A stretch of 64,000 nucleotides of DNA from contig CP066697.1 of NCBI GenBank assembly GCA_016432625.1, positions 215,363 to 279,362 on the forward strand, read 5' to 3'. The translations under genes were made by a program, and so were the position numbers. The notes below the pieces were generated by a model. That model was not told the origin of the DNA. It saw only the letters and a list, made by a program, of their open reading frames with translations, and searched no databases. This stretch comes from Candidatus Berkelbacteria bacterium. Its GTDB lineage: Bacteria; Patescibacteriota; UBA1384; 2-12-FULL-50-11. Below are positions 2,572-41,326 of this stretch, piece by piece; positions within the stretch are counted from its first letter, which is position 1, and each line of letters begins with the position of its first letter.

Positions 2572-4803
2572 TTAAATTTTAGCCCGTTTGAGCAACAGCG
2601 AGTTTAAAACTACCGAAATTGAGCTAGCGGCCATAGCCGCGGACGCAAAGATTGGGCTTAGCAAAATTCCCCAAATCGGGAATAAGACGCCGGCCGCAAC
2701 CGGAATAAGCAGGATATTATAGCCGAATGCCCAGACCAGATTCATCCTGATTGTCCCCATAGTCTTGCGGCTTAGGCGAATTGCGGCCGCGATACTACGT
2801 AGGTCCTTATTAATGAGCGTGATGTCGGCCGCTTCAATAGCAACATCGGTCCCTGAGCCCATGGCGATGCCGTTGTCGGCAGCAGCTAGGGCTGGTGCGT
2901 CGTTGATGCCGTCGCCGACCATGGCGACATGCAAGCCTTTTTGTTGTAGTTTGCGTACCTCGAGCTCTTTGTCTTGCGGCAATACTTCCGCTAAAACATT
3001 TTGCGCTTCAACGCCAGCCTCTCGGCCTATTGCCTCAGCAACCCGTCGGTTGTCCCCGGTAATCATGTAAACTTGCAGTCCTAGCTCCCGCAGCTCTTTA
3101 ATGGCGGCTGGTGAGGTTGGTCGAAGAGTATCGGCAACAGCCACAATTCCAGCTGCTTGAGAGTCGATGCCAACTAACATAGCGGTTTTGCCTTCATTCT
3201 CGAGTTGTTCCAAGGCCGTTTCTTGATCATTAGTCAGAGCTACTTTTTCTTGCGCGAAAAGTTTACGGTTGCCGACAACTACGGTCTTTTTCCCAACTTT
3301 GCCGCGAACGCCATGGCCAGAGATTGCCTCAAAATCGCTCACCTTTTCCAATAAAAGGTTTTTATCTTTAGCCGCTTTGACGATGGCCGTTGCTAAAGAG
3401 TGTTCAGACAACGCTTCAACGGCAGCTGTGAGAGCAAGCAGCTCATTCTCCTCACGATTCCACGCCACCACCTCCGTCAGGATTGGTTCACCATTGGTGA
3501 GTGTCCCGGTCTTATCAAAAACGATAGCGGTGACTTTATGGGCGGTCTCCAACGCCTCGGCGTTTTTAATAAGAATGCCGCGCTCGGCACCCCGACCAGT
3601 ACCGACCATGATAGCCGTCGGCGTTGCTAGCCCCATGGCGCACGGACAGGCGATAATTAACACCGTAACCATGCTGAGTAAGGCGTAAGTCATTGCCGGG
3701 TCGGGACCAACAACATACCAAACCACAAAAGTTGCGATCGCTACCATAATTACTATCGGCACGAAGTAGGAGGAGATGGTATCAACCAACCGCTGGATCG
3801 GTGCCTTTGAGCCCTGAGCTTCTTCAACAAGTTTGATGATCTGTGCCAGCATTGTTTCGCTCCCAACTTTCTCGGCTACGAAAGTAAAGCTGCCAGTTTT
3901 ATTGATTGTGGCGCCAATCACAGTGTCTCCGGCTTTTTTTGTCGCTGGTATGGATTCCCCGGTTACCATCGATTCGTCGATGCTTGAGGTGCCTTCTATT
4001 ATTTTTCCGTCAACGGGCACCTTTTCGCCAGGGCGAACGATAATTTTGTCACCATGGACAACCTGGTCGATCGGTAGGTCGATTCCCTTGCCGTCGCGAA
4101 TCACCCGGGCAGTTTTAGCTTGCAGGTTCATTAGTTTTTTTATCGCCTGGCTAGTTCGTTTCTTGGCGACAGCTTCTAGATAGCGTCCAAGCAAGATGAG
4201 CGTAATAACGATGACCGAGACGTCGAAATACGGCGCGATTTCCACCCCCAGCAACGACAAAGCGCCCGGGAAGAAAGTGATAAACGCAGAATAAATATAG
4301 GCGACAGTGGTTCCAAGCGCGATCAAAGTATCCATGTTGGCGCTACGGTGGACTAAGGCGGTTATAGTGCTCTTATAAAACTGCCATCCGGCCCAAAACT
4401 GAATTGGGGTAGCTAGTAATAGTTGAAAGTAAAAGTTTTTAACAATCTCCGGAGCAGTTTCCATCACCCCGGGTACGCTTCCCCACATAACGACTAATCC
4501 AACTAAAAATCCGGCAATGATTTTTGGCTTCAAAATTTTAAGTTCACGCTCCCGCATCATTTCCTGGTGGTCGTGCTGCTCGCTGCCGGCAGGGACTGCC
4601 TTATAGCCGACCCTATTTACCGCAGCTTCTAAGTCGTGACGCGTTGCATGTTTGTGATCGTAAGCAACGGTTGCTTTCCCCGTCACTAAGTTAACATTAG
4701 CTTCGTGGACGCCCGGAACCTTAGTGAGGGAGCGCTCGATTGTCCGGACGCAGCTAGCGCAGTGCATTCCCTCGATGTTGATGGTTTCTTTTTGATGGTT
4801 CAT
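2572..4803 (-). CDS. copA: Copper-translocating P1B-type ATPase CopA with N-terminal HMA domain
   Basis: GMHCASCV metal-binding motif, CPC ([10 protein letters not shown]) in the TM helix, DKTGTLT phosphorylation motif and [10 protein letters not shown] hinge. Confidence 0.9.
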
Positions 4804-4916
4804 CAGTGGTGATGCTCCTCATTTTTACTGCGATCGGCTTTGCCTAAGAAAAACCAATAAGTCAGGATTATTAGGATAATTCCGGCTACGATGACGATAA
4901 GTTTGTCGCTAGTCAT
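4803..4916 (-). CDS. Unannotated 37-aa single-TM peptide ending in HHH ([37 protein letters not shown]), translationally coupled between copZ and copA
   Basis: ATG at 4916 lies 4 nt inside the copZ stop, and its TGA overlaps the copA ATG (TGATG). Hydrophobic core followed by a basic/His3 tail. Below the 60-aa ORF-track cutoff. Confidence 0.45.
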
Positions 4917-5148
4917 GACTTACCTCGGCTTTGTAACCGCTCGTTTCTTCTATCGCTTTGATTACGTCTTCGACGCCCAATTTATTCTCGTCGAATACAA
5001 TTTCGGCGGACTTTTTACCTAAGTTAACCTCAACGCTGTTAATTGCGTCGTAATCCTCCTCCAAAGTTTCTAGCAGCATAACGCAGCTGGCACAGTGGAC
5101 ATCTGGTATATAGAATCTTTGTTTTGTCATCGTTGCCTCCTCATTCAA
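4909..5148 (-). CDS. copZ: Copper chaperone CopZ (HMA domain)
   Basis: HCASCV metal-binding motif in a ~70-aa ferredoxin-like HMA fold. The true start is probably M7 (MTKQRF). Confidence 0.8.
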   Translation of the reverse strand: MNEEATMTKQRFYIPDVHCASCVMLLETLEEDYDAINSVEVNLGKKSAEIVFDENKLGVEDVIKAIEETSGYKAEVSHD

Positions 5149-6298
5149 ACAATATTTGTCCGGTGTACATACCCATTGAGCAGCTGAAACGCAGCCGACC
5201 CTTATCTTGGGCGGGGATATTTATTGTCTCACGGCCAGTTTCCGGTAGAACCTTTTGGATCTTCAAGCTTGGAATTACAAAGGCCCTGCTACAACTGAAG
5301 GTGTCTTTGGTCACTAACGTCAGCCTTGTCGGTACGCCTGCTTTGGCTTTCAAGATGTTTGGCTCGTAACCATCTTCCTGAACGCTAATTGTTAACTTCT
5401 GTTCACTCTGGGCTGCGTCATTCACTTGCTCATTAGCTTTAGTTTGTTGGGCAATTTCGGTTGAGCCAATTGTATCGACCGGCGTATCGAGCCACTGTTT
5501 ATAGGCGGCATACGAGACTGGTGAGCCAACGAGATTAAGACCACTTTCAAGCGAATAGAGGCTGAAGATCAACACCAACACCGCTACTATTCTTACGAAG
5601 TATTTATTCAGGCTTTCGCCAAGACGAGTCGTGAAATAGGCAAGGATAAAGAACAGGGGAGAAGCGCCGAGCGTAAACGAGAATAGTATCAACGCTCCTG
5701 CAACGGGGCTACCCGTACCGAGCGCTAAGGCCATCATCGCCTGAGTAATACCGCACGGGATTAGTACCGTCAGAGCACCTAAAAAGATTGGTGTAGCGTA
5801 ATCTTCTTTGGCATTTTTACTAAAACGGCGGATAAAGCGGCGAATAAACTTTGGTGGTTGAATCTGGAAATAATTAAAGAACGGATGAACATTTAACAGC
5901 CGCAAGGCTGTTCCAAGCATAAAAATAGTAATAGCGAGCATTAGAACTCCGCGCATAACGGGCGTCAGTTGAAGCATTGTGCCGAGCCACCCTAAGCCAA
6001 GCCCTAATAATGTATAAGCAACAATTTTAGCGGCTAAGAATAGAACGATCGATAGAGTGATATCGCTGCGAAAACTTCTTGGCGCTCGCGGCTGTTCCTG
6101 ATGATGCTCGTAGAAGTTAATTAAGTCGTGTTTTGACATATGGGCCGGGTCAACTCGGTTCTCTTTAGGCTTATTTGGCTTAAACTCATCTTCGGCTTGT
6201 TTAGCGATCACATTAGCCAATAGCCCACCTTGAACGGCTAAACAACTAAGGCCGCCTGTAGTAAGGCCAGTCAAAAATATCACCCACAAATTTGGCAT
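5141..6298 (-). CDS. Polytopic membrane permease fused to a C-terminal cupredoxin-like domain (probable copper-handling protein)
   Basis: About 8 predicted TM helices with conserved Cys (GGLSCLA, LIPCGIT). The C-terminal ~90 aa resemble the cupredoxin_1-type fold, with two FSCS motifs and MGMY. Sits between arsR and copZ. Confidence 0.55.
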   Translation of the reverse strand: MPNLWVIFLTGLTTGGLSCLAVQGGLLANVIAKQAEDEFKPNKPKENRVDPAHMSKHDLINFYEHHQEQPRAPRSFRSDITLSIVLFLAAKIVAYTLLGLGLGWLGTMLQLTPVMRGVLMLAITIFMLGTALRLLNVHPFFNYFQIQPPKFIRRFIRRFSKNAKEDYATPIFLGALTVLIPCGITQAMMALALGTGSPVAGALILFSFTLGASPLFFILAYFTTRLGESLNKYFVRIVAVLVLIFSLYSLESGLNLVGSPVSYAAYKQWLDTPVDTIGSTEIAQQTKANEQVNDAAQSEQKLTISVQEDGYEPNILKAKAGVPTRLTLVTKDTFSCSRAFVIPSLKIQKVLPETGRETINIPAQDKGRLRFSCSMGMYTGQILFE

Positions 6299-6624
6299 TA
6301 TTTACTCACCCCTAATTCGTTCAGGAGGCTCTTGGTGAACTCGTTACTTTGCATGGTGTAGTAAACAGTTTGAGCATCCTTACTGGAACTTAGAATGTCT
6401 GCTTTCTTTAGCTTCTTTAACTGCCGGGATGCGGCTGAAATAGAAATACTGACGAGCTCTGCAATTTGGCCGACGGACAATTCCGGATAGTGTCGAAAGA
6501 GATAGCAAATCTTCATAGCCGTGGGGTCGCCAATAGTCCCGTGACGCCGCGCACACGCCTTAACGGCTTCACTGTCGGTAATCTCCCTCTTGATGTTGGC
6601 CAAGTTCTTACTGGCACGCATCAT
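6298..6624 (-). CDS. ArsR/SmtB-family metalloregulatory transcriptional repressor
   Basis: Winged HTH (LSVGQIAELVSISISAASRQLKKL) typical of ArsR/SmtB. First gene of the copper operon. Confidence 0.8.
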   Translation of the reverse strand: MMRASKNLANIKREITDSEAVKACARRHGTIGDPTAMKICYLFRHYPELSVGQIAELVSISISAASRQLKKLKKADILSSSKDAQTVYYTMQSNEFTKSLLNELGVSK

Positions 6625-6652: not shown

Positions 6653-6702
6653 GTATTTGCATGTATACGCAAATACTAACCTTGCCTGTAATTGCGTGTC
6701 AA
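6653..6702 (-). promoter_or_regulatory. Candidate arsR-copA operon promoter: -35 TTGACA (6702-6697), -10 TAGTAT (6678-6673), overlapped by the 8-8-8 inverted repeat GTATTTGC-ATGTATAC-GCAAATAC (6653-6676)
   Basis: Near-consensus sigma70-like hexamers are read on the minus strand. A perfect 8-bp inverted repeat overlapping -10/+1 fits ArsR/SmtB operator architecture. Confidence 0.4.
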
Positions 6703-7882: not shown

Positions 7883-7889
7883 TTTTTTG

Positions 7890-7961
7890 GGTGGCTAACG
7901 GGAATTGAACCCATATCAAGGGGACCACAACCCCACGTGTTACCATTACACCATAGCCACC
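7890..7961 (-). tRNA. tRNA-His (GTG) with encoded G-1
   Basis: Cloverleaf with acceptor GTGGCTA/TAGCCAC, G-1 pairing with discriminator C, and anticodon loop TTGTGGT. Confidence 0.85.
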
Positions 7962-7974
7962 ATGCTTTTAAGCT

Positions 7975-8005
7975 GGTGGTTATGCCCGAACGGGATATAG
8001 CCACC
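7975..8005. repeat. tRNA-His acceptor-stem-like minihelix hairpin (TGGTGGTTAT...ATAGCCACCA)
   Basis: Shares GGTGGCTAT/ATAGCCACC with the adjacent tRNA-His acceptor stem. Could be a tRNA remnant or a terminator. Confidence 0.4.
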
Positions 8006-8029
8006 ATGCTGCGTTATTATATAACGCCG

Positions 8030-8102
8030 CGCGCCCGGAGGGATTCGAACCCCCGACCCTCTGGTCCGAAGCCAGATACTCTATCCACTGAGCTACGGGC
8101 GC
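8030..8102 (-). tRNA. tRNA-Arg (TCG)
   Basis: Acceptor GCGCCCG/CGGGCGC, D-arm TAGCTCAGTGGATAGAG, anticodon loop CTTCGGA. Confidence 0.85.
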
Positions 8103-8161
8103 AAATCAACGAGCACAAACAAATGTACAGCGGCCGGAGCTAAGTGGAACGACACTCGGAG

Positions 8162-8182
8162 TATCCACTGAGCTACGGGCGC
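8162..8182. repeat. 21-bp exact duplicate of the tRNA-Arg(TCG) 5' end (TATCCACTGAGCTACGGGCGC), 80 bp from the gene
   Basis: Identical to 8082-8102; partial tRNA copy. Confidence 0.6.
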
Positions 8183-8282
8183 TTGTCGTCCAATTTTCCC
8201 ATAAATTGCCCTACTAATCTAGGAGATTAGGCCAAGTATCTAGATTTCGACTGCGAGCGATTGCGAGAAGTGAATTTCGTTT

Positions 8283-8705
8283 TTAGAATTCAATTTTTTG
8301 TTTTTTCCAGCCGAATAGCGGCTCGTAGATGATGTCGATGAATTTCGGTGAAAGTTTGTACCATTTGTGATTATCATCAATGTGATCGTCAGGTAAGTGG
8401 TATTTTGCTAGATAATTCTTAGCTAGTTGTTCGTCTTGATTGACTACCGTGACTGTCCCGGCAATCTGTAAGCCAGCTGCTTTGTGATCGGGCGTATCAA
8501 CCATGATTGCCGCTGCCGCTTGCGGCGCTAGGTCAACGGCCCTCGAGTGTCGTACTACCGGCATTGAGAGCCAATAGATATTCATCGCCTCGTCATGAAT
8601 GTAAATGAGCGGGCTGACCCAAACGCCACCGTCGTCGTTTGTGCCGAGATGGATCAAGCGGCCTTGTTCTAATAATTGCTGAGCTAGCTTCTTTAAATCT
8701 TCCAT
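8283..8705 (-). CDS. Pyridoxamine 5'-phosphate oxidase-like FMN-binding split-barrel protein
   Basis: Size (140 aa) and sequence pattern typical of the PNPOx-like family; weak call. Confidence 0.5.
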   Translation of the reverse strand: MEDLKKLAQQLLEQGRLIHLGTNDDGGVWVSPLIYIHDEAMNIYWLSMPVVRHSRAVDLAPQAAAAIMVDTPDHKAAGLQIAGTVTVVNQDEQLAKNYLAKYHLPDDHIDDNHKWYKLSPKFIDIIYEPLFGWKKQKIEF

Positions 8706-8766
8706 AGATTCAATAATACTCCCACGCCTGGAGGGCGGGAAGTATCCAGAGTAGAATTACGTCGTT

Positions 8767-8843
8767 GCCCTCGTAGCTCAGTGGATTAGAGCGTTGGTTT
8801 CCGGTACCAAAGGCCACAGGTTCAAGTCCTGTCGAGGGCGCCA
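8767..8843 (+). tRNA. tRNA-Arg (CCG), CCA encoded
   Basis: Acceptor GCCCTCG/CGAGGGC, anticodon loop TTCCGGT, 3' GCCA. Confidence 0.85.
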
Positions 8844-40544: not shown

Positions 40545-41258
40545 AGCGCCTCCTTGCGGAAGCGCTTTTAGCGGAAACCTAATAAGCCGGGTTCTGTAAC
40601 TACCTTGCGGCAGCTCGCGAACATTAATCTAATGCGTTGAGACCAACTATTCTGTCTCGAGACCGAGACGGAGCTCGTTGTTCCTTTTGGGAACGATGAA
40701 CTTAATGAATAGCGGCCCGCTCAACTTGCACCACGCTGGGTTTAGCCACTCGCCTTATTACTAAGGACGATTGTGAGCTCTTACCTCACTCTTTTCACCT
40801 TTGCCTTTTCCGATTCAGTTAGGAAGGGGCGAACAAGTCGCCCAGATTAAGGGGACGGGTCGAATGAACTAGGTCTAGTTACAGGTCACGCTGACGATTG
40901 TTGCCTTGACTACACCAGCCTCGGCGTACATTCCTTGGCAACTGTTTTCGGCCCATCGTCTTGCTTTGCGATCGGCTTCTTGGCGGTTTTCGGCATCGAT
41001 CGACTTTTCCAAAGTTTTGATATAAGAACCATTCTCATTGATTGGTTCGAACACACCTGCCTTGGCTTTGCACGTGACTCGAATTTTAGCGGTTGCATTA
41101 AAGTACATGAATATCACCTCCTAACTGAACCGGACATTGGCTGTTTTGTTTCTGTGCCACTTTCCCTTGCCTTACGACAGCCAGCCGTTAGCTGGAGCGC
41201 GTCTCTATGGTGCCCGGACTTTCCTCACATTTTAAAATGCGCGATCGCGTTGATTTCA
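40545..41258 (-). ncRNA. rnpB: RNase P RNA (bacterial type A), interrupted by a ~290-nt insertion (40828-41116)
   Basis: P4 5' strand GAGGAAAGUCCGGGCACCAUAG (41235-41214); GGGAAAGUGGCACAGAAA; AAGGUGAAAAGAGUGAGGUAAGAGCUCAC (J11/12-P12); GGCUAAACCCA; P4 3' strand ACAGAACCCGGCUUAUU (40597-40581). Promoter TGGACT/17/TATAAT upstream and hairpin plus UUUUG terminator downstream. Confidence 0.75.
40875..41108 (-). CDS. 77-codon ORF embedded in the rnpB insertion (MYFNATAKIRVTCKAKAG...SVTCN), preceded by SD AGGAGG
   Basis: AGGAGGUG, then 8 nt, then AUG; basic soluble peptide with 3 Cys; the SD forms part of the helix closing the insertion. Confidence 0.4.
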   Translation of the reverse strand: MYFNATAKIRVTCKAKAGVFEPINENGSYIKTLEKSIDAENRQEADRKARRWAENSCQGMYAEAGVVKATIVSVTCN

Positions 41259-41326
41259 CGGAAATTATAGCCCAAATTATCGTGAAAGTCCACCGCTAGA
41301 GTGGCGATTTTCTCTTATTGTAAAGC

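Follow-up and report, generated by a model that had tools for sequence, protein, structure and literature searches.

Does the short open reading frame (ORF) wedged between a copZ-like gene and the copper pump gene copA in a Candidatus Berkelbacteria bacterium encode a protein, and what might that protein do? The ORF lies on the minus strand of a 64,000-nucleotide (nt) stretch of contig CP066697.1 (positions 215,363 to 279,362), which was analyzed as a whole and is called the window below. A first-pass annotation had described it as a hidden gene for a membrane anchor with a C-terminal His3 tail. Judged from its own letters and those of its relatives, the ORF is a genuine, strongly conserved gene for a single-helix membrane peptide. 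Its helix is the membrane anchor of CupA, the main point that the annotation had missed. The gene and the sequence preceding it are located as follows.

4803..4916, minus strand: microprotein gene, 37 amino acids (aa), with ATG at 4916..4914 and TGA at 4805..4803; ORF read from the window letters
4923..4926, minus strand: GAGG, a weak Shine-Dalgarno-like sequence 6 nt 5' of the microprotein ATG, within the end of the copZ-like gene

The extent of the ORF, from ATG to TGA, is as first annotated. An in-frame TAA two codons 5' of the ATG makes that ATG the first possible start. It begins 5 nt ahead of the TAG of the copZ-like gene, so that the two genes overlap by 8 nt (ATGACTAG) and not by the 4 nt originally given; among the orthologs described below the overlap is 8 or 11 nt. 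GAGG stands 6–12 nt 5' of the microprotein ATG in five of nine orthologs (the window, L082, L084, L086, and L088) and is absent from the remaining four. At the other end, the microprotein TGA shares base 4803 (A) with the copA ATG (TGATG), just as the annotation had stated. The gene is indeed short, but it is hardly hidden, as public contigs already carry the identical ORF and its orthologs as genes predicted by automatic callers.

A protein search of a collection of 5.8 billion proteins returned orthologs at 65–84% identity, and metagenome contigs supplied two further ones, giving a set of nine that includes the window ORF. Those from the protein collection each sit between an HMA gene and copA, 3' of the same ArsR and DsbD_2-cupredoxin genes, and all nine have exactly 37 codons in the slot between HMA gene and copA. 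The conserved small frame that the first-pass annotation had anticipated at orthologous junctions is thus present, and it ends in H-x-H. A CopA-based genome scan yielded relatives at no more than 54% identity, with no orthologous junctions; CupA-type anchors surfaced instead. Close relatives come from 0.1 µm groundwater filtrates, a type of sample dominated by Patescibacteria (PMC8672522); on this circumstantial ground, the source is plausibly an ultra-small bacterium of groundwater.

We aligned the codons of five and then of nine orthologs and compared the proportions of nonsynonymous and synonymous differences (pN/pS). With synonymous sites saturated (pS 0.8–0.97), the ratios are qualitative only, at 0.23 overall, 0.42 for codons 2–19, and 0.07 for codons 20–37; in these genomes, the HMA gene gives 0.31 and copA about 0.2. 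The asymmetry is still unmistakable, and the C-terminal half is the most constrained part of the gene. Two alternative frames of the region gave ratios above 1, and all five other frames are interrupted by stops in every ortholog. Variable columns are distributed 17/8/32 over the three codon positions, concentrated at third positions. The stop codon alternates between TGA and TAA among the orthologs, which marks the TGA as the true stop here. Changes rich in synonymous and poor in replacement substitutions, together with the stops in other frames, indicate that the ORF is a protein-coding gene; purifying selection is confined to the proposed frame. A chance open frame in the spacer, or a conserved RNA element, retains next to no probability. 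A lone 37-codon open frame is not rare at this base composition, but chance is refuted by the selection on the frame, the codon-position pattern, and the profile match described below, and no Rfam family matches the microprotein region.

No curated family in Pfam or NCBIfam covers the microprotein. Sub-threshold assignments to DUF3149, YebO, FliL, and SA1362 were rejected, being typical of transmembrane helices. A tblastn search of the microprotein against 80 CopA loci from unrelated genomes instead gave as best matches the N-termini of ~125-aa proteins encoded beside copA in Bacteroidota, Acidobacteriota, Chloroflexota, and Gemmatimonadota. In these proteins, a helix (…IIVxxxGxxLIxxxxWYF…) is followed by a CupA-type cupredoxin domain. 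The same search also matched an actinobacterial in-frame fusion to CopA.

A set of metagenome loci was retrieved via the motif YWFFLGK and is biased toward it, and the chance test was therefore repeated with motif-independent anchors. We built a profile of seven CupA-type anchors found only via CopA or a cupredoxin domain, among them the anchor of a Listeria plasmid copY/cupA-type/cupredoxin/copA operon (MSQIIVLIIGLTLIAFIGWWFFGK). Against 1,920 stop-to-stop segments of the window, the microprotein was the sole significant match (E 8.4e-5, 18.9 bits), with the runner-up at 5.1 bits. This result identifies the microprotein helix as a CupA-type anchor. A likeness to CopA's own helix before the CPC helix (…FVPIVIGIAxLTFxIWFFLG) was set aside as non-specific; the independent profile scores no segment of the window CopA.

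The microprotein belongs to a sizable family. A profile of the five closest peptides, searched exhaustively against 1.84 billion representatives, recovered 52 cluster representatives at E ≤ 1e-3. Most of these are 28–45 aa long, with MxxDKIIVxxxGxxxIxFxYWFFLGKK leading into a short tail that is rich in His or, in some cases, in Met. Several carry a cupredoxin domain behind the same N-terminus, such as P0052 (121 aa, Cupredoxin_1 E 1.6e-23). A broader, microprotein-only profile found 80 members among 5.8 billion proteins at E ≤ 0.01, including PF13473-bearing fragments at about E 1e-10. In a subgroup of 69–77 aa (P0103–P0110), the same helix precedes an HMBD domain (PF19335, CPMH…CxxCGM), a third cargo. 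Helix residues D4, G12, YWFF, and GK are conserved across the three cargos and several phyla. In total, the family comprises at least 90 distinct microproteins of 27–47 aa. At JGI, several of them are listed as "plastocyanin domain-containing protein", others as "hypothetical", and one as "cbb3-type cytochrome oxidase subunit 3"; the copies at NCBI are unnamed. We found no description of an anchor-only CupA-type microprotein in the literature.

CupA-type proteins with their domain also occur on 111 plasmids (of Listeria, Lactococcus, Nostoc, Hymenobacter, Alteromonas, Streptomyces, and others), annotated only as "cupredoxin domain-containing protein", for example in L171 (Listeria monocytogenes NZ_CP014254.1); a tblastn search of the microprotein itself against plasmids gave no match. 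Reviews describe CupA as restricted to a few streptococci (PMC7558416, PMC5646241). Short proteins encoded 3' of copA in cyanobacteria (L025 5785..6039, L020 6310..6579, L040 2699..3127) have a signal peptide, a QKIEQPL motif, and the helix GGLxLIGLELWWFL but no cupredoxin domain. Relatives in L010 and L005 still have the domain, and its absence from the short proteins looks like a loss in parallel.

The microprotein can be divided into three parts.

4902..4916, minus strand: residues 1–5 (MTSDK), predicted extracytoplasmic N-terminus, from charge distribution and the L075 fusion
4845..4901, minus strand: residues 6–24, transmembrane helix homologous to the CupA-type anchor, core YWFF, from profile matches and AlphaFold2
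4806..4844, minus strand: residues 25–37, predicted cytoplasmic basic/acidic tail ending in H-x-H

Given 13 sequences, AlphaFold2 predicts one helix (residues 3–32) for the microprotein, with predicted local distance difference test scores of 90–95 over residues 1–20 that fall to 63 over residues 31–37. The annotated membrane anchor with a tail therefore stands, as a single helix and a flexible tail; the final three residues are HHH, HKH, or HRH in the orthologs, so that the conserved element is H-x-H and not His3. At least 90% of the sequences in the family alignment have D4 in the N-terminal part, and an invariant K-A-D-R-S-K lies in the tail, its codons changing freely at synonymous sites. 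His-rich ends recur throughout the family. His accounts for 14.8% of tail residues in the 90 distinct microproteins and for 27% of the last eight, at least two His fall within the last eight residues in 66 of the 90, and many tails contain HDHDH, HDHSH, HEHHH, or HDHEH. The corresponding 20 residues after the anchor of full CupA-type proteins contain 0% His.

Two lines of evidence suggest that the peptide sits in the membrane with its N-terminus outside and its C-terminus inside. Lys and Arg together average 2.6 in the ten residues after the helix compared with about one (in the DK pair) before it. In addition, the N-terminal domains of CopA are cytoplasmic in the established topology of P1B-ATPases, and the actinobacterial fusion of anchor, cupredoxin, and CopA consequently places the C-terminal side of the anchor in the cytoplasm. 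This fusion (L075 3398..6175, from a Propioniciclava metagenome-assembled genome) is 925 aa long and in frame throughout; its C-terminus is a Cys-rich, YHS/TRASH-like segment followed by HH. CupA has likewise been described as facing the cytoplasm (PMC7558416).

The gene is closely joined to copA, as the first-pass annotation had noted in proposing that the frame bridges both neighbors and is translationally coupled to them. Eight of nine orthologs retain a T[GA]ATG overlap with copA. The ORF also contains the following element.

4815..4820, minus strand: GAGGAG (codons E33–E34), the only Shine-Dalgarno-like sequence of copA, 11 nt before the copA ATG

All nine orthologs have GAGGAG or GAGGGG at this place, although GAA also encodes Glu. 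Translational coupling of the microprotein and copA would fit this arrangement. In the exceptional ortholog, L086 (region 8114..8154), a 39-nt insert puts the copA start about 40 nt downstream, and TAATG at the former junction opens a 12-codon ORF.

Overlaps at both ends and an invariant Shine-Dalgarno-like sequence inside the ORF are also what one would see in a leader ORF or coupling device, in which translation through to the copA start matters and the peptide is irrelevant. We give this explanation very little credence. The amino acids are kept through many synonymous changes and the sequence is not free to vary (0.07 in the C-terminal half), and the helix has a homolog in the anchor of an established membrane protein. 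Moreover, one family member lies 3' of copA, where it is unable to serve copA initiation, and the microprotein gene of L086 is intact though separated from copA.

We examined genomic context across the family in 79 metagenome loci, which hold 14 complete microprotein ORFs (27–47 aa, 12 distinct), 59 complete CupA-type ORFs (116–121 aa), and six ORFs cut by contig ends. In all 13 evaluable microprotein loci and in 50 of the 51 evaluable CupA-type loci, the gene immediately precedes copA and has the same orientation. Three distant members without the exact motif all adjoin copA as well: two precede it, and the third follows it directly, overlapping by 4 nt. Farther upstream, a DsbD_2-cupredoxin gene is present in 7 of 9 microprotein loci and in 10 of 29 CupA-type loci (Fisher p 0.05). 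We rejected, as a general explanation, an origin by fission as the cupredoxin domain moved to the DsbD_2 protein. Many loci hold both a full CupA-type gene and a DsbD_2-cupredoxin gene, so that loss of the domain from a CupA-type gene accounts for the microprotein better than a domain transfer does. As a separate observation, a CsoR-type repressor gene (Trns_repr_metal) adjoins the operon in L084, L088–L090, and L172, besides or replacing the ArsR-type regulator, and in L172 its stop overlaps the microprotein start.

Domain loss raises the question of whether the gene is a decaying cupA remnant, perhaps transcribed and functionless. Full-length CupA-type genes fill the same slot in related loci, the greater frequency of the upstream DsbD_2-cupredoxin gene at microprotein loci means that the lost domain could be dispensable, and some very short variants have no tail. 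Decay is nonetheless highly improbable, as 37 codons are fixed in nine orthologs despite saturated synonymous sites, constraint is stronger than on the neighboring genes, and His-rich tails were acquired independently in different lineages.

Observed here, then, are a gene under selection, a CupA-type helix, copA as its neighbor, and a family with His-rich tails. From these we infer the topology, the contact with CopA, the binding of metal, and its transfer. Our preferred reading, which we consider probable with considerable reservation, is that the microprotein is a minimal CupA-type partner of CopA, membrane-tethered with its N-terminus out and C-terminus in, metal-binding, translationally coupled to the pump, and relaying copper to it. 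Of the earlier suggestion of a CopA-associated, metal-binding microprotein, adjacency to copA and the enrichment of His in the tails are borne out by our data; the metal binding and CopA contact themselves are at the level of a prediction.

A possible mechanism would begin with the CupA-type anchor helix inserting with its N-terminus outside and its C-terminus inside, so that the 13-residue cytoplasmic tail would take the place of CupA's cupredoxin domain. The stop/start overlap and the copA ribosome-binding site within the Glu-Glu codons could lead to co-production, with both proteins entering the membrane at the same place. The anchor would most likely pack against CopA and hold the peptide beside the pump. 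There, on the cytoplasmic face of the membrane, His and carboxylate groups of the tail might form a weak metal site that captures copper and passes it to the CopA entry platform, the CopA HMA domain, or the operon's other chaperones. The microprotein may also stabilize the pump.

Precedent for several of these steps exists in CupA, which is membrane-anchored and hands Cu(I) to CopA (PMC7558416, PMC5646241). Pneumococcus becomes more sensitive to copper when the membrane leader of CupA is deleted (PMC5646241), and attaching CopZ to the CupA helix does not make it a substitute for CupA (PMC7558416). These results, together with the conservation of the helix sequence across three cargos and several phyla, argue that the helix does more than simply tether the peptide to the membrane.

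Several observations weigh against the proposed role as a metal-relaying partner. The tail lacks Cys and Met, the residues with which CopZ and CupA usually bind Cu(I), and family tails contain 0% Cys. There is no His in the last eight residues of 15 of the 90 microproteins, and neither His nor Met in 12 of the 90; some His-less members are 27–31 aa long and end in GKANK or GKKK. Hence, the tail is not universally required. In a second clade of microproteins (42 aa), the anchor is clearly selected (pN/pS 0.15), while the tail, at 0.39, is not distinguishable from an alternative frame at 0.34. The shifted copA start of L086 implies that tight coupling is not obligatory. Part of the nucleotide conservation of the window clade's tail may serve copA translation, given the invariance of GAGGAG, although such a signal cannot explain the invariant K-A-D-R-S-K. 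Because the operon already contains an HMA chaperone, a CupA-type domain, and the HMA domain of CopA, a further metal site could be redundant. Finally, translation of the microprotein, its metal binding, and its contact with CopA are all predicted computationally.

Alternatively, the microprotein could serve CopA in a structural or regulatory capacity alone, much as KdpF does for KdpB or as the core of PacL does for its pump; the helix would then stabilize, localize, or tune CopA, and the tail would not handle metal. In favor of this, the anchor keeps its sequence no matter which C-terminal part follows, anchor-only variants of 27–31 aa persist 5' of copA, and selection in the 42-aa clade is clear on the anchor only; PacL proteins, for their part, are required chiefly to keep the ATPase stable, their His motif being accessory (PMC13460109). 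Set against these points, His enrichment recurs in unrelated tail sequences of many lineages, the tail is the most constrained part of the protein in the window clade, and the other two cargos of the anchor are both metal-binding domains. We therefore judge the structural subunit unlikely, albeit a serious contender, and retain the metal-relaying partner as our reading.

CupA itself (S. pneumoniae, PDB 4F2E and 2MRY), with the PF13473 group, has the same anchor motif as the microprotein (…IIVxxxGxxLIxFxxW[FWY]FFGK…). In both cases, the gene lies directly beside copA, here in an operon with an ArsR-family regulator, and the C-terminal part is predicted to be cytoplasmic. Unlike CupA, the microprotein ends 13 residues past the helix, gives no PF13473 match at E ≤ 1, and is devoid of the binuclear Cys/Met Cu(I) site (C…CxMxM), having no Cys and only the initiator Met. 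The CupA-type domain of its operon is instead separate, fused to a DsbD_2 membrane protein. The anchor-HMBD proteins (PF19335, P0103–P0110) also share the anchor, as MDxxxIxVxxGGxxxIVFxLWFFFGKRE followed by a small metal-binding module, but their cargo is Cys-based (CPMH…CxxCGM) instead of a His tail.

In Mycobacterium tuberculosis, the DUF1490 proteins PacL1, PacL2, and PacL3 act as scaffold/chaperone proteins of the P1B-ATPases CtpC, CtpG, and CtpV (PMC13460109). The C-terminal DLHDHDH of PacL1 is a binding motif for Zn, Cd, and Cu that becomes important only when the metal load is high; the remainder of the protein stabilizes the pump (PMC13460109). Like these proteins, the microprotein is small, single-pass, and encoded immediately 5' of a P1B-ATPase in the same operon. 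Both have a C-terminal His-rich motif that is optional, to which the microprotein's H-x-H corresponds by composition only. The microprotein differs in giving no DUF1490 match (the only Pfam hits at E ≤ 1 are DUF3149 and YebO, both below cut-offs) and, at 37 aa, in having neither Glu/Ala repeats nor a long disordered region. Because its helix derives from a CupA-type anchor, the resemblance to PacL is convergent and not homologous. By analogy, the microprotein may work like PacL1 without being a member of the PacL family.

One-helix microproteins are paired with P-type ATPases elsewhere as well, namely KdpF (in KdpFABC), CcoS/FixS (with CcoI/FixI), and sarcolipin and phospholamban (with SERCA). 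None of these has a His-rich tail or a CupA-type anchor, in contrast to the microprotein, and the KdpF and FixS Pfam models gave no match to it at E ≤ 1; no sequence relationship was found.

Copper export by CopA is usually described with the soluble chaperone CopZ. To our knowledge, membrane-tethered partners are known only from a few streptococci (CupA) and mycobacteria (PacL). Our searches indicate that the CupA-type anchor is widespread across phyla, with its sequence conserved whatever the cargo, and that a whole family of ~37-aa microproteins, none of them covered by Pfam or NCBIfam and their few public names unrelated or misleading, keeps only this anchor and a His-rich tail. Membrane-tethered metallochaperones and accessory proteins were known for P1B-ATPases; what is new is an anchor-only variant among them. 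Should the anchor dock to CopA, it would offer a simple, testable model for metal delivery to a P1B-ATPase at the membrane surface, and the proposed role, if true, would place the microprotein among the smallest metallochaperone-like proteins described. The microprotein gene also illustrates, with good support, how the usual length thresholds cause real genes to be discarded. More tentatively, and with somewhat less than even confidence in the combined proposal, we suggest that the CupA-type helix could be a portable CopA-docking module with interchangeable cytoplasmic parts (a cupredoxin domain, HMBD, or a bare His-rich tail), and that the microproteins could be minimal members of a widespread, unnamed class of copper-exporting P1B-ATPase accessory subunits, common in ultra-small groundwater bacteria, that reaches the PacL1 solution by another route.

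The microprotein gene is part of a packed minus-strand operon with the gene order ArsR/SmtB, DsbD_2-cupredoxin, HMA (CopZ-like), microprotein, copA. Its other features are listed here from the 5' end.

6702..6673, minus strand: promoter-like site 5' of the ArsR/SmtB regulator
6298..6624, minus strand: ArsR/SmtB-family metalloregulator, first gene of the operon (NF033788, 57 bits versus a cut-off of 55)
5141..6298, minus strand: DsbD_2 membrane protein with a C-terminal cupredoxin domain, 385 aa (Pfam DsbD_2 7e-29, Cupredoxin_1 1.3e-15)
4909..5130, minus strand: CopZ-like HMA protein, 73 aa, ATG at 5130 with GGAGG upstream (Pfam HMA E 1.6e-11)
2572..4803, minus strand: CopA, P1B-1 copper-exporting ATPase, 743 aa (TIGR01511, 624 bits versus a cut-off of 397)

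No terminator-like site was found within the operon on the minus strand. The translation of CopA has an N-terminal HMA domain (Pfam) and the motifs CPC, YN, and MxxSS, which are the established marks of Cu(I)/Ag(I) P1B-1 pumps. NCBIfam CopZ models match the CopZ-like protein only below their cut-offs. Both it and the CopA N-terminal domain have the metal-binding loop H-C-A-S-C (VHCASC and MHCASC, respectively).

The cupredoxin domain of the 385-aa protein matches S. pneumoniae CupA (PDB 2MRY/4F2E) at E 1.2e-6 and also the cupredoxin metal-binding domain of CopA (4F2F); the C…CxMxM ligands align and are kept. Its DsbD_2 domain has two membrane-embedded Cys (GGLSCLAVQGG and LIPCGITQ). We found no description of a function for this DsbD_2-cupredoxin fusion in the literature. 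The fusion recurs beside copA in many metagenome loci, with an additional N-terminal HMA domain in L173.

The neighbor of the operon is a 187-aa protein with faint similarity to Peptidase_C39, and just past it three tRNA genes (His-GTG, Arg-TCG, and Arg-CCG) are clustered at 7889..8843. Elsewhere in the window, a match to class A bacterial RNase P RNA (40568..41260, minus strand) spans 693 nt compared with 367 positions in the model, which implies an insertion of ~300 nt.

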